DNA of 64,000 bases from Gemmatimonadota bacterium (GTDB lineage Bacteria > Gemmatimonadota > Gemmatimonadetes > Gemmatimonadales > GWC2-71-9), in assembly GCA_039588295.1 (NCBI GenBank), contig JBDHAB010000014.1, positions 8,312-72,311 of the forward strand, read 5' to 3'. Made by a program: the position numbers. Shown here in pieces: positions 54,001 to 57,000 of this stretch. Each line of letters opens with the position of its first letter. Position 1 is the stretch's first letter.

Positions 54001-57000
54001 ATTTTCACGATGGCCGACGTGCTCAACACCGGGCTCCTAGAGCTCGACGAAATCCTCTCCGGGGAGGGGACCTTGCGCCGTGGTGAGCTGTCGGTCTTCG
54101 TGGCAATGCCACCGACCTCCAAGACGATCTTCTGGCGACAACAGCTCGAACGCGCGATGGAGGACGGCAAGACTGCCGTCTACATCGACTACGAGATGAA
54201 ACCGACGGACAGCCTTTCGGACCTGGGGGCCACACCCCCGGACAAGCCGATCAAGGTCTAGCCCAGTCCGGAGCATAGAGCTGACAGGACTGGGCGGGCC
54301 GGAAAGGCCGTCATGTCCAAGAGAGCTCTACGTCGTCATCACCGTGAGCGCATGCTTCAGCACTGCGCTCGCATCCTCAAGATCCGTTGGGACGAGTCAC
54401 TCGCCACCGGGGACATCACCTTCGATGACATCGAGCGGTGGTCTCGGCTTCGTCGGGACAACTTCTCGTTCTGTTCCTGCTGGATGTGCTGCAACCCGCG
54501 GCGCCTTCGGAACTCGAACGGTCCTTCACGCACCGTGCAGGAACTCCGGGCGATGCAGGAGGTGGATGATGAGTAGGGCACTACGCCGACACCACCGGCA
54601 ACGGATGGTGAACAGGGCTCGTGCGCTCTTCCGACGGTGGGGGGACACCGAGGAGAGGATCCGACACACGGCGCCTCGACTCGCGGACAACCTCTGCTGG
54701 TGCTCGTGCTACTCGTGCGGCAACCCGCGACGCCACTTTGGGTTCTGCATCTACGGCAAGACCAACAGTGTCCGAACCCGACAAGAGGTTTTCGCTGACC
54801 TCCAACTCCAAGAACAACTCGAAGAAATTGAATGACTCGCTTGACACGAACGTCGAGCACGACTACAACGGCAAGACCATGTTCTGCATGAAACGCAAGA
54901 CCAAGCTGTAGCCCGAGGGGACGGACGCAATCCGCCTCTTGGGCGTCGATAGCGTTTATCCCCGGGCCGGTAGCTCAGTCTGCGCAGAGCGGTGGGTTCT
55001 TACCCCATAGGTCGAAGGTTCGATTCCTTCTCGGCTCACCAACGGGACCACGAACGGTACGAAAGACCGGCCGTGACCCGGGTGCCAGGACACGCCCACT
55101 GATCGTGGGACCGTCACCCTGACACCACCCTGGGCCCATAGCTCAACCCGGCAGAGCGGCTGACTCTTAATCAGTAGGTTGTAGGTTCGATTCCTACTGG
55201 GCTCACCAAGAAAGATCATCATGTTTCCAGCACACGACACTCTCAAACGCACCCTCGCTCCATCCCTTTGGGCGAGTTAAGCGTAGCCTGGCCGAACGCA
55301 CCGGACTTTTAATCCGGAGGACGAAAGTCCCACCGGGGGTTCGAATCCCTCCTCGCTCTCCAAGGGCCACTAGCTCAACCTGGTAGAGCAGCGGGCTTTT
55401 AATCCGCGGGTTCCGAGTTCGATTCTCGGGTGGCCCTCCAACAAGGAAATAGGATGCACAAAGGGGTATGCCCCTGGGCATTGGGTGGGCGGGACACCGT
55501 CTGGGGTTCGACTCCCCCTGTTTCCGCAAAACGTCATGTCACTCTCCAAACACATCTTCTTCGGTTAGCCAGGTTCCAGCTTCGTTCACAAGAGCAGGAA
55601 CCTGAAACAGCTACTTGCGTTCACGCGCAAGAGGAAGTAGACAAATCGACATGGAAACGATCCTAGTAGAGATTCGCGCTGCGGAAGGGGGCCAAGACGC
55701 CAAGTCTTTGGTCACCGAGCAGTATCGCATCTACCAGAAGTACATGACGTTGGAGCGGCTTTGACCACGAACTGGTCGAGGTGCGCCCCGGCTTTTTGCT
55801 GATGCGCGTCTCCGGCAAGAACGCCGCGATTGCGTTCTGCCACGAAGCCGGCGGCCACCGTTTCCAACGCGTACCGCCAAACGAAAAAAGAGGCCGCGTC
55901 CACACCAGCACGGTGACGGTCGCAGTACTGGATGAGCCTTCCGAGCACGAGGTCCACATCGACCCGCGTGACCTGGAGGAATCGTTCACCCGCGGGAGTG
56001 GAAAAGGGGGCCAGCATCGGAACAAGACCGATAGCTGCGTCATCCTGACCCACACGCCCTCGGGCATCATGGTTCGGGTCGACGGTGGCCGGAGCCAACA
56101 CTTCAACCGACAGACGGCGATGGGGGTTCTCCGGGCTCGTCTGAAAGCTGCCGGTACCGACCGTCGCACCAAGGACCGGAACAACAACCGGCGCCGTCAG
56201 ATTGGCGGAGGTGCTCGCGGTGACAAAGTACGGACGATCGCCATCCAGCGTGACACCGTGCACGACCACGGCACCGGCAAAACGATGAAAGCCAAGGCGT
56301 ATCTCAGGGGCAACCTGAGTCTGCTCTGGTAACGGGGAGCGCACCCAGCTTCCGGAGAATGGCAGGCACGAACTCGTCGTCATCGAATTGCAAGCAGTGG
56401 TCGCCCGTCGTCAGTATGTGCGCGATCGTCTTCCGACCCTCCGGCGTTTTCATCAAACGCCGGAGGGGTCCCTCGACATGCCAGTCACGGCTGTAGTGTC
56501 CGGGTGAACACCTCCAACCTTCCTTCACATGAACGAGCAGAACACTCTGGCGCTCCGTACCATCAGGTCGTGACCACCCGAAGGTTTCTTTGACACGCAT
56601 GTCGAAGGAAACCCATTCGCCTCCAAGGATAGTCATGGCTTGGAACATGTCGTGAACGTTCCCCCATCGCACCCCCGTGTCGATGTAATCCCTGAGTTTG
56701 GCCCACAGGCCCCGACGATAGCCGCCCATGCGGTGCGGATAGTCCCACAGCAGTGCGTACTCTCGGTACGCGTCGAAGCGGTTGTTCACCGGAGCCGTCA
56801 AAAAGGACGCCTCACCCTCGGACAAATCTCGAGAACAGTATCGGGTGTTTCATTCAGATTCAGCATTGTCCTCGTCCTTTTCGATGAGCTCTGCCTCCAC
56901 CGGAATCCCAACCACATCAATGATCTCGACCAGCTCCTTCGGGATCTGGACCACGCGACCCTTGCTCTCCACGGACTCCAGGGCCTTGCGCTCCTTGGCC

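Follow-up and report, generated by a model that had tools for sequence, protein, structure and literature searches.

A putative prfB-type +1 frameshift gate in a domain-1-less, RF1-type release factor gene on a phage-like contig

A release factor gene on a phage-like contig is divided between two reading frames, and the two halves meet at a cassette of the kind found in the bacterial prfB gene. We regard it as rather likely that a programmed +1 frameshift of the prfB type makes from this gene an RF1-type factor that lacks domain 1, in an amount tied to slow termination at UGA. The occurrence of the shift, its response to RF2 and the codons that the product recognizes are inferred from the sequence. 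To our knowledge, prfB has been for forty years the textbook case, and essentially the only case, of a bacterial release factor made by programmed +1 frameshifting. All positions given here are those of the window, that is, the whole stretch of 64,000 nucleotides (64 kb) that was analyzed, which is part of contig C14 of the assembly.

The split gene and its product

The frame-0 part of the gene, ORF0 (55651..55764, forward strand), starts at ATG 55651 and consists of 37 codons and a TGA stop at 55762-55764. The +1-frame part, ORF1 (55763..56332, same strand), consists of 189 codons and a TAA stop (56330-56332), and it reads DHELVEV...GKGGQHRNK...LLW. Neither part holds any further stop. The window sequence and both reading frames confirm that the parts join as the initial annotation had described, at GGAG-CGG-CTT-TGA-C. 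On the forward strand, an SD-like GGAG (55752..55755) lies 3 nt (CGG, 55756-55758) 5′ of the shift codon, and the shift site CTT TGA C (55759..55765) is made up of the P-site Leu codon CTT, the 0-frame stop TGA, and then a C. Given one four-base step at CTTT, the joined product, which we call P0002, has 226 aa. A single copy of the cassette pattern GGAGNNNCTTTGA is present in the 64-kb window, precisely at the junction; 100 shuffles give an expectation of 0.12. A hairpin that would include CUUUGACCA in its 5′ arm is predicted at the site. We dropped it because its z-score is weak (-1.55, with 13 of 200 shuffles folding equally well) and because its 3′ arm is not conserved in the viral relatives L001-L003. 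A scan of positions 54600-56700 for promoters and terminators found none on the forward strand.

Its domains and motifs mark the 226-aa product as a class-I release factor descended from RF1, with the stop-codon-reading superdomain (domains 2 and 4) and the GGQ domain retained. Profile, pairwise and structure matches all support the earlier view that it derives from RF1 and lacks domain 1. P0002 aligns unbroken over the junction to positions 105-332 of the 347 in the RF1 model, with 204.7 bits, and to residues 88-302 of the T. maritima RF1 with an E-value of 1.1e-42. The scores stay under the RF1 equivalog cut-offs of NF001859 and TIGR00019 (204.7 and 198.8 bits vs. 400 and 423.25). The PCRF domain PF03462 is found with 69.3 bits (cut-off 24), and the RF-1 domain PF00472 with 96.1 bits (cut-off 35); the latter match contains the GGQ peptidyl-tRNA hydrolysis motif (GKGGQHRNK; 56006..56014, forward strand), residues 119-121 of P0002. 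As for domain 1, alignments to RF1 start at its residue ~88-112, and ATG 55651 precedes that start by no more than 3-4 residues. The first strand and first helix of domain 2, with the invariant E-G-G, come from ORF0, and ORF1 holds the remainder of domain 2 plus domains 3 and 4. In the family alignment, E12 G13 G14 and G119 G120 Q121 are invariant.

The codon-reading tripeptide of the window protein is P-P-N (55874..55882, forward strand), whose RF1 counterpart is P-x-T. The rest of the codon-reading loop is RF1-like (Q-R-V-P...G-R-V-H-T-S), and all other RF1 recognition residues are retained. On the strength of these recognition elements, the product probably terminates at UAA/UAG-type stops.

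The structure model was made for P0007, a natural unshifted relative that is 68% identical; its mean pLDDT is 85. Its best fold matches are RF1 crystal structures, with a TM score of 0.81 to 1rq0_A. The gate, at junction 37/38 of P0002, is predicted to fall in this model between a helix (14-34) and a strand (38-45), and strand 2-12 together with helix 14-34 appears to be integral to the fold.

Conservation of the gate in the family

We scored 241 loci across viral, metagenome and genome collections, of which 146 score well and are referred to here as strong. A +1 shift is needed in 89 of the 146 strong loci. CTT precedes the stop in every one of the 89, and the stop is TGA in 61, TAG in 25 and TAA in 3. 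The gate stands at the same codon (model position 37) in 81 of them, and 73 have a C immediately after the stop. In 71, the end of an SD-like core lies 2-4 nt 5′ of CTT; the other 18 have no recognizable SD-like stimulator, and this counts against the explanation that we favor. Another 35 strong loci have an in-frame TGA, and only 5 strong loci are short members without an interruption. The claim that relatives conserve the prfB-type cassette is thus borne out, far beyond chance.

A six-sequence DNA alignment (70-80% protein identity) keeps GGAG and CTTTGA invariant, and the flanking wobble bases differ. Both parts of the gene evolve as coding sequence, each in its own frame: the differences by codon position are 115/76/189 for the N part in frame 0, and 469/295/1008 for the C part in the +1 frame. 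By these comparisons, the need for a frameshift is a family trait rather than damage.

For the 27 best viral loci, our recount agrees with the nine that were reported to have a CTT-TGA +1 shift; eight of these have GGAG, and L006 has GGGGG. Two of the 27 were said to have an in-frame TGA instead; we find 15, with the TGA at the homologous codon, so that an in-frame TGA at the gate codon is a common alternative gate and not a rare one. Loci L010 and L011 use a different +1 site, CTT-TAG-C, 16 codons downstream. L027 is cut by the contig end, and none of the 26 complete loci among these best viral matches is uninterrupted. Database proteins do include unshifted relatives: coverage of the query reaches 96% or more in 15 of the best 120 clusters. 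In unshifted relatives, the counterparts of ORF0 and ORF1 form one ORF.

The identity of the gate codon is labile. On the family tree it switched about 22 times between TGA and TAG, and no protein column tracks it besides the residue that is encoded by the stop's own bases (the best other column has a mutual information, MI, of 0.300, vs. a shuffle 95% maximum of 0.319). PPT is the commonest tripeptide of the family and PPN the second. Among TGA-gated members, 34 of 61 have PPT and 17 have PPN, and PPN is found in 4 of the 25 TAG-gated members. This tally and the column association test led us to reject the idea that the gate codon is tied to the tripeptide or to another residue.

Could the gene be expressed with no frameshift at all? 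Gene callers have ORF1 translated alone, with ORF0 as a separate leader peptide; an ORF listing of the window gives a 183-aa ORF from an internal GTG at 55781, and 105 of the best 120 database clusters span only 69-87% of the joined protein, with the N-terminal part missing. We find this very improbable, since ORF0 shows homology to RF1 domain 2, with the family-invariant E-G-G, its counterpart strand and helix are integral to the modelled fold, it evolves as coding sequence in frame 0, and a single ORF encodes both parts in the unshifted relatives. It is harder still to believe in a decaying gene or an assembly error, in which a one-base insertion would have broken the gene. The window does come from a single contig of a metagenome-assembled genome, but the same one-base offset, always at CTT and then a stop, recurs in 89 loci from three collections, down to ~40% protein identity, and both halves are under coding constraint with no additional stops in either.

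Carriers and related systems

The gene had been described as phage-borne. This holds insofar as the contig is phage-like and the gene lies beside a tRNA-Lys array; the family, on the other hand, is not restricted to phages, and bacterial genome records carry members too. Four tRNA-Lys genes (CTT, CTT, TTT, TTT; 54964..55440, forward strand), found by ARAGORN, stand directly upstream on the same strand, out of 19 tRNA genes in the 64-kb window. tRNA-Lys genes are also found upstream of the release factor gene in all five of the closest viral relatives (L001-L005). Family copies with a gate are present in 5 of the 6 Al-Shayeb-type huge-phage records examined, and the published huge-phage genome LR745208.1 has a copy of its own with CGGAGG-GGT-CTT-TGA-C. 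GenBank phage records give 55 matches, all at <60% identity, the best being unannotated huge-phage assemblies. Several short GenBank "phage" matches resemble bacterial prfA.

Bacterial carriers are sporadic; complete chromosomes of Archangium and Minicystis are among them. We rejected vertical inheritance as a core gene in the Myxococcota, as no more than 2 of the 201 genomes sampled there gave a match (E ≤ 1e-42). Each of three bacterial genomes that we checked has one copy, alongside canonical RF1 and RF2. No common neighbor gene was found in the bacterial records (47 ORFs from 9 loci). The membership of contig C14 in the binned bacterium may be doubtful, with a GC content of 60.4% vs. 64.2% for the assembly. 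None of the 16 sequencing runs listed contains more than 0.09 of the words sampled from the stretch, and there is no RNA run among them.

The closest known device is that of prfB, in which the same cassette is found: CTT stands three bases after an SD-like element and is followed by a stop and a C, and a +1 shift gives access to the frame for the greater part of a class-I release factor. The prfB gene of the same assembly has the classical form, AGGGGA-TAT-CTT-TGA-C; C14 possibly comes from elsewhere, and therefore this comparison may concern another host. The window gene differs from prfB in being RF1-type and without domain 1, and in the location of the site, which is in domain 2, at codon 38 of 226, at the Trp of the RF1 G-W-K. 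The prfB site belongs to domain 1, and in E. coli it is codon 26, according to the accessible text of Atkins et al. 2016 (PMC5009743). Moreover, the gate stop of the family may be TAG (25/89) or TAA (3/89), whereas the portions of Prince et al. 2025 (PMC12421855) available to us report no TAG among 8,164 prfB motifs.

With canonical RF1 (prfA), which is its best family match, the window protein shares the PCRF and RF-1 domains, the GGQ, and the loop Q-R-V-P-x-[T]-E...G-R-x-H-T-S. It differs from it in lacking domain 1, in scoring below the RF1 cut-off, in its tripeptide PPN, and in requiring recoding; the same portions of Prince et al. 2025 (PMC12421855) report no programmed frameshift in prfA across >12,000 genomes. 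An ArfB or ICT1-type rescue factor was rejected, as only residues 99-133 match (38.2 bits, cut-off 100) and domains 2 and 4 are present. The match to the model of PrfH, a factor with a divergent reading loop of its own, is weak (72.2 bits vs. a cut-off of 166.65). PrfH (RFH), which is paired with RtcB, is described in the available part of Baranov et al. 2006 (PMC1586002) as a class-I release factor homolog that also lacks domain 1. No RtcB partner was found among the 58 window ORFs scanned against Pfam.

Recoded and huge phages are known to bear RF1 or RF2 genes near tRNA genes, which have been read as support or control of termination during infection (Borges et al. 2021; Al-Shayeb et al. 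2020, both as far as their available text goes). The same text mentions no frameshift or in-frame stop in these genes. Jade "code change" genes are in the standard code, according to the accessible part of the Borges et al. 2021 preprint. For the gate in the window, code switching is no explanation, because contig C14 uses TGA as a stop: its long ORFs end in TGA (57%), TAG (35%) and TAA (7%), and since this usage resembles that of bacterial contigs we take TGA to be a stop there, in the standard code. The release factor of a giant amoeba virus is likewise viral and dependent on recoding, but it is of the eukaryotic type, from a virus that infects eukaryotes, and it is unrelated to the prfB-type cassette. 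Its gene is expressed via readthrough and frameshifting, according to the available sections of Atkins et al. 2016 (PMC5009743).

What the gate may do

In the mechanism that we propose, a ribosome would pause when its P site has tRNA-Leu on CUU and its A site faces UGA-C, and the internal SD-like GGAG, three bases upstream, would pair with 16S rRNA. The tRNA-Leu would then re-pair on UUU, and decoding would restart at GAC. Termination at the UGA would instead leave a useless 37-residue peptide. Because frameshifting competes with termination, the yield of full-length protein would go up when UGA is read slowly, that is, when the activity of the host RF2 in the infected cell is low. The product would work as part of the phage's own translation kit, lacking the domain for contacts with the L11 stalk and RF3.

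The initial annotation had taken one more step, to a booster of UGA termination with prfB-like autoregulation. That step is not supported: the product has codon-reading elements of the RF1 type, the gate may be TGA, TAG or TAA, and no column tracks it. A UGA gate would not be expected to give prfB-style self-feedback because the product looks RF1-type, and across the family such feedback is not supported because the gate codon is not tied to the reading head of the product. A factor that reads UAA and UAG would not relieve a shortage of UGA termination, and this counts against our favored explanation too.

A bolder reading, which we put forward only tentatively, is that the family may be a modular sensor of termination failure with three interchangeable gates at the same codon (+1 shifting at CUU-UGA, +1 shifting at CUU-UAG or CUU-UAA, and in-frame UGA readthrough), by which a phage, or a mobile element in a bacterium, would monitor one chosen host release factor. 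It could be directed at RF2 or at RF1, because exchanging the gate codon would leave the protein as it is.

A gate of low, fixed yield would give the same pattern of free flips between TGA and TAG without any change in the protein. The frameshift would then be real and serve as a fixed attenuator: irrespective of how the host RF1 or RF2 is faring, only a few percent of initiations would yield the release factor, whose excess might be toxic. We hold this to be rather unlikely. The interchangeable gate codon and the lack of any protein column that follows it fit it well, as does the lowered fitness of B. subtilis under uncontrolled release factor overproduction (Prince et al. 2025, PMC12421855, in its accessible part). 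But a weak start site would serve equally without the cost, the family retains designs that depend on the rate of termination (a weak stop context, with C in 73 of the 89, or the in-frame TGA of 35 loci), and the same cassette in prfB responds to the RF2 level, as described in the available text of Atkins et al. 2016 (PMC5009743). There is also a slim chance of true autoregulation, in which the factor reads its own gate codon, by being omnipotent or by a PPN that accepts G at the second position, and its abundance shuts off its synthesis. That would follow the logic of the known prfB device; the window has PPN in place of PxT, TGA gates go with PPN somewhat more often than TAG gates do, and by our own reasoning an Asn side chain could bond either A or G. 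Most TGA-gated members, however, carry PPT, an RF1-type tripeptide, the association with the gate codon is confined to the junction residue, and all the other recognition residues remain those of RF1.

In a literature search that covered main texts and few subscription journals, no account turned up of an RF1-type or phage-borne release factor gene with a frameshift or an in-frame stop, and apparently this large family of gated, domain-1-less, RF1-type factors is undescribed. A counterpart of the prfB frameshift for UAG or in an RF1 gene was unknown to Atkins et al. 2016 (PMC5009743, available sections). The family fills this gap with an RF1-type gene that carries the prfB cassette, in natural UGA, UAG and UAA versions and in a readthrough version at the same codon. 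There is also a consequence for annotation, which is that gene callers truncate the genes of this family. The family is a ready comparative system for asking what the cassette senses, how portable it is, and why large phages carry termination factors. If the modular sensor is real, then a stripped-down substitute factor would be supplied in long infections, under code switching, or when the termination of the host is under attack.

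A release-factor gene in two frames

The gene lies on the forward strand of the window and is written in two parts. The frame-0 part comprises 37 codons, from an ATG at 55651 to a TGA at 55762-55764, and the +1-frame part comprises 189 codons, from 55763 to a TAA at 56330-56332. At the end of frame 0 the sequence reads GGAG CGG CTT TGA C, and one four-base step at CTTT joins both frames into a protein of 226 residues (P0002), whose alignment runs unbroken across the junction in RF1 profile, Pfam and solved-structure comparisons. The RF1 model NF001859 scores 204.7 bits over positions 105-332 of 347, compared to 134 for RF2, 72.2 for PrfH and 38.2 for ArfB, all of them under the curated cut-offs. 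Pfam finds the PCRF and RF-1 domains, and P0002 matches solved RF1 structures such as T. maritima RF1 (residues 88-302, E 1.1e-42). Because these alignments include domains 2, 3 and 4 and leave out domain 1, P0002 is, judged by its sequence, a class-I release factor without domain 1, which agrees with the initial annotation of an RF1-derived factor of this kind split in two frames. It retains GGQ (residues 119-121) plus the codon-reading loop, in which the tripeptide is PPN.

The frame-0 piece is no spare leader, because it holds the first strand and helix of domain 2, including E12-G13-G14, which is invariant in an alignment of 17 family members (A1). We made a structure model for P0007, a natural unshifted relative that is 68% identical to P0002. 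The model (mean pLDDT 85) has RF1 as its best structural match (TM 0.81 to 1rq0_A), and it places the position of the gate, junction 37/38 of P0002, between a predicted helix (14-34) and a predicted strand (38-45). By gate we mean the site where reading needs a +1 shift at CTT plus a stop, or where an in-frame TGA stands.

Conservation of the gate

The window has a single occurrence of the pattern GGAGNNNCTTTGA, located at the junction, with 0.12 expected; the comparative evidence is the stronger argument for a real gate. We collected 80 viral loci using P0002 as query, and 80 metagenome and 80 species-representative genome loci using A1. Since the patterns used for collecting come from the C-terminal part, they exert no selection for the gate. 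A profile-based classifier applied to these 240 loci, some of them near-duplicates, and to the window produced 146 strong matches and 95 weak or partial ones. Among the strong loci, 89 are of the +1 frameshift type (the window, 11 viral, 51 metagenome and 26 genome loci), 35 have an in-frame TGA and 10 are uninterrupted; the N part was not found in another 11, most at a contig end, and one further locus, L191, is an oddity. Of the uninterrupted loci, five are ordinary RF1 or RF2 genes that have domain 1 (L194, L198, L199, L200, L202) and five are true short members (L086, L133, L151, L196, L197). Two of these five short members, a small sample, come from Actinomycetota: L196 belongs to an Acidimicrobiaceae MAG and L197 to Virgisporangium ochraceum. 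For this phylum, Prince et al. 2025 (PMC12421855) report in the accessible text that the prfB frameshift has been lost and that frameshifting fails.

In all 89 frameshift loci, CTT precedes the 0-frame stop, which is TGA in 61, TAG in 25 and TAA in 3. The shift site falls at profile position 37 in 81 of them, and a C directly follows the stop in 73. In 71 loci the distance from the end of an SD-like core (GGAGG, GGAG, GAGG or GGGG) to CTT is 2-4 nt, and 18 have none. In the closest relatives of the window gene (70-80% protein identity), GGAG and CTTTGA are unchanged while adjacent wobble positions vary. Across five close genes, differences by codon position number 115/76/189 in the first part read in frame 0, and 469/295/1008 in the second part read in the +1 frame; thus each part is under coding evolution in its own frame. 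A broken gene or an assembly error does not account for the conserved gate together with the coding-type evolution of both parts. The proposal of split frames at a cassette kept in relatives therefore stands, and we have little doubt that the frameshift at the window locus is programmed.

For the 27 best viral loci, the CTT-TGA shift reported in nine holds, but the in-frame TGA reported in two becomes 15 on recount. This TGA sits at the codon homologous to the gate and aligns with the Trp of RF1's G-W-K; elsewhere in these genes Trp is encoded by TGG. Two more loci have a separate +1 site, CTT-TAG-C, 16 codons downstream (profile position 53 vs. 37), and one is cut by the contig end. The two loci with this second, independent site, L010 and L011, are on IMG/VR contigs with 28% GC; their CTT TAG C lies at about 3150-3160 and has no SD-like element, with a tmRNA gene and three tRNA-Met genes within 3 kb. 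In L013-L015 (about 3664-3672), TGA replaces the C-terminal Trp (..LLW), followed by Lys and a stop; this makes a second TGA at a Trp position, where in these phages TGA may be decoded as Trp or may serve as a second gate.

Six huge-phage GenBank records include one with CGGAGG-GGT-CTT-TGA-C, four with one or two in-frame TGA and one uninterrupted. The four are AT-rich huge phages (LR745206, LR756504, LR756502, LR756501; L246, L247, L249, L250), with TGA at codons 34, 39 and 47 after the E-I-R motif, so the gate position itself shifts within this clade. Among the best 120 protein clusters, uninterrupted relatives are a minority: 15 cover at least 96% of the joined protein, and the other 105 cover 69-87%, therefore gene callers retained the second part only.

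Contig and genomic settings

The 72-kb contig C14, which contains the window, has 60.4% GC vs. 64.2% for the assembly. The window has 19 tRNA genes and encodes a GH25 lysozyme, an HNH endonuclease, an RNA ligase (PF09414; 32237-32938, minus strand), an RNase H and a DNA methylase. Two giant ORFs on the minus strand, of at least 2,100 residues (1-6303) and of 2,626 residues (6973-14850), have no Pfam match. IMG/VR contigs bearing related release factors reach 618 kb, and all this is consistent with C14 being part of a very large phage. A thaumatin-family protein (51799-52866, plus strand) and a Bax1-inhibitor-family membrane protein (28973-29716, minus strand) are odd phage cargo. Four tRNA-Lys genes lie immediately upstream of the release-factor gene, and tRNA-Lys is upstream in 5/5 closest relatives too. 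ARAGORN finds an unusually long 93-nt tRNA-Lys(TTT) at 55270-55362 (plus strand), shared by L001 and L002, and a tRNA-His with anticodon ATG at 41109-41183 (minus strand). Long C14 ORFs end in TGA (57%), TAG (35%) or TAA (7%), with similar usage on the bacterial contigs. TGA is thus a stop on C14, and a TGA-to-Trp code does not account for the window gate.

The contig is phage-like, as initially annotated, but the factor is not restricted to phages, since gated copies are also found in bacterial genome records, many of them Myxococcota. Complete chromosomes with a gated copy are those of Archangium gephyra (CTT-TAG) and Minicystis rosea (CTT-TGA), and Thiobacillus denitrificans and Novimethylophilus records have gated copies as well. 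One short-factor copy stands beside canonical RF1 and RF2 in 3/3 genomes checked. The gene is sporadic, with Myxococcota matches at E <= 1e-42 in 2/201 evenly sampled genomes. Around the gated gene of L189 (a Thiobacillus denitrificans DSM 12475 scaffold) there are 26 tRNA genes within 6.6 kb, and upstream of that of L167 (a Kofleriaceae MAG) there are 11; both records may hold phage-derived islands. A search for a shared protein neighbour of the bacterial-record loci brought out none. A mobile or phage-derived origin of the bacterial members fits best. In L195 (Novimethylophilus kurashikiensis; 708-2918 and 5911-6402), the gated factor comes after a 737-aa fusion of kinase, phosphatase and RNA ligase (AAA_33, Metallophos, RNA_lig_T4_1), with a PTH2 peptidyl-tRNA hydrolase nearby, a neighbourhood flavoured by RNA repair and ribosome rescue.

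What the gate would sense

The prfB frameshift is an established mechanism, and the window gate shares its anatomy. A ribosome would pause when CUU occupies the P site and UGA-C, a poorly read stop, the A site; 16S rRNA would pair with the SD-like element that lies three bases upstream, tRNA-Leu would re-pair on UUU, and decoding would then proceed in the +1 frame. Since shift and termination compete, output would be expected to rise when UGA is read slowly, i.e. when RF2 is limiting.

In prfB, the gene's own product reads the gate codon, whereas the reading head of the window gene is RF1-type. The codon-reading tripeptide is PPT in 34, PPN in 17 and others in 10 TGA-gated members, and PPT in 15, PPN in 4 and others in 6 TAG-gated members. 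A FastTree tree built from 125 distinct proteins gives at least 22 changes of the gate stop, 9-12 of them forced by well-supported branches. The association test covered the 77 distinct members whose site is at position 37. In it a single alignment column is associated with TGA vs. TAG, that of the residue right after the shift (MI 0.863), whose codon takes in the last two bases of the stop itself; the column ranked second (MI 0.300) is below the 95% shuffle maximum of 0.319. By these sequence comparisons, the gate codon is not tied to the protein across the family. Given this and the RF1-type reading head, the prfB-style self-feedback originally suggested is unsupported.

We favour instead a gate that cross-senses the host factor reading the gate codon, RF2 for the window locus. 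The main rival is a plain fixed attenuator, which would have the anatomy of a gate and sense nothing. A lesser rival concerns the product, which would be omnipotent or of PPN-altered specificity. Cross-sensing by the gate, in the full reading that includes RF2 sensing and a UAA/UAG-type activity, seems to us somewhat the better bet.

In its accessible text, Prince et al. 2025 (PMC12421855) reports programmed frameshifting in prfB only, with none in prfA across >12,000 genomes and not one prfB motif with TAG among 8,164. In the portions available, Antonov et al. 2013 (PMC3711429) has prfB as the release-factor frameshift cluster, and Atkins et al. 2016 (PMC5009743) describe a UAG counterpart in RF1 genes as not known; their sole viral mention is a giant amoeba virus in which expression of the RF gene depends on readthrough plus frameshifting. 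Phage RF1 and RF2 genes are reported, with recoding unmentioned in the sections consulted, by Al-Shayeb et al. 2020 (PMC7162821) and Borges et al. 2021 (bioRxiv 10.1101/2021.08.26.457843). In the literature outside most subscription journals and supplements, we found no description of a gated, domain-1-less RF1-type family.

The window locus belongs to a large family of RF1-type factors that lack domain 1 and are gated by recoding. The device is that of prfB, but in a different gene, at a different place and with interchangeable stop codons. RF1 and RF2 are also encoded by the assembly itself, and its prfB (L083; contig C18, around position 6362) carries a classical AGGGGA TAT CTT TGA C, with a 0-frame peptide ending in ...LAELRGYL. 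If the binned bacterium is the host, its ribosomes already employ a prfB-type frameshift.
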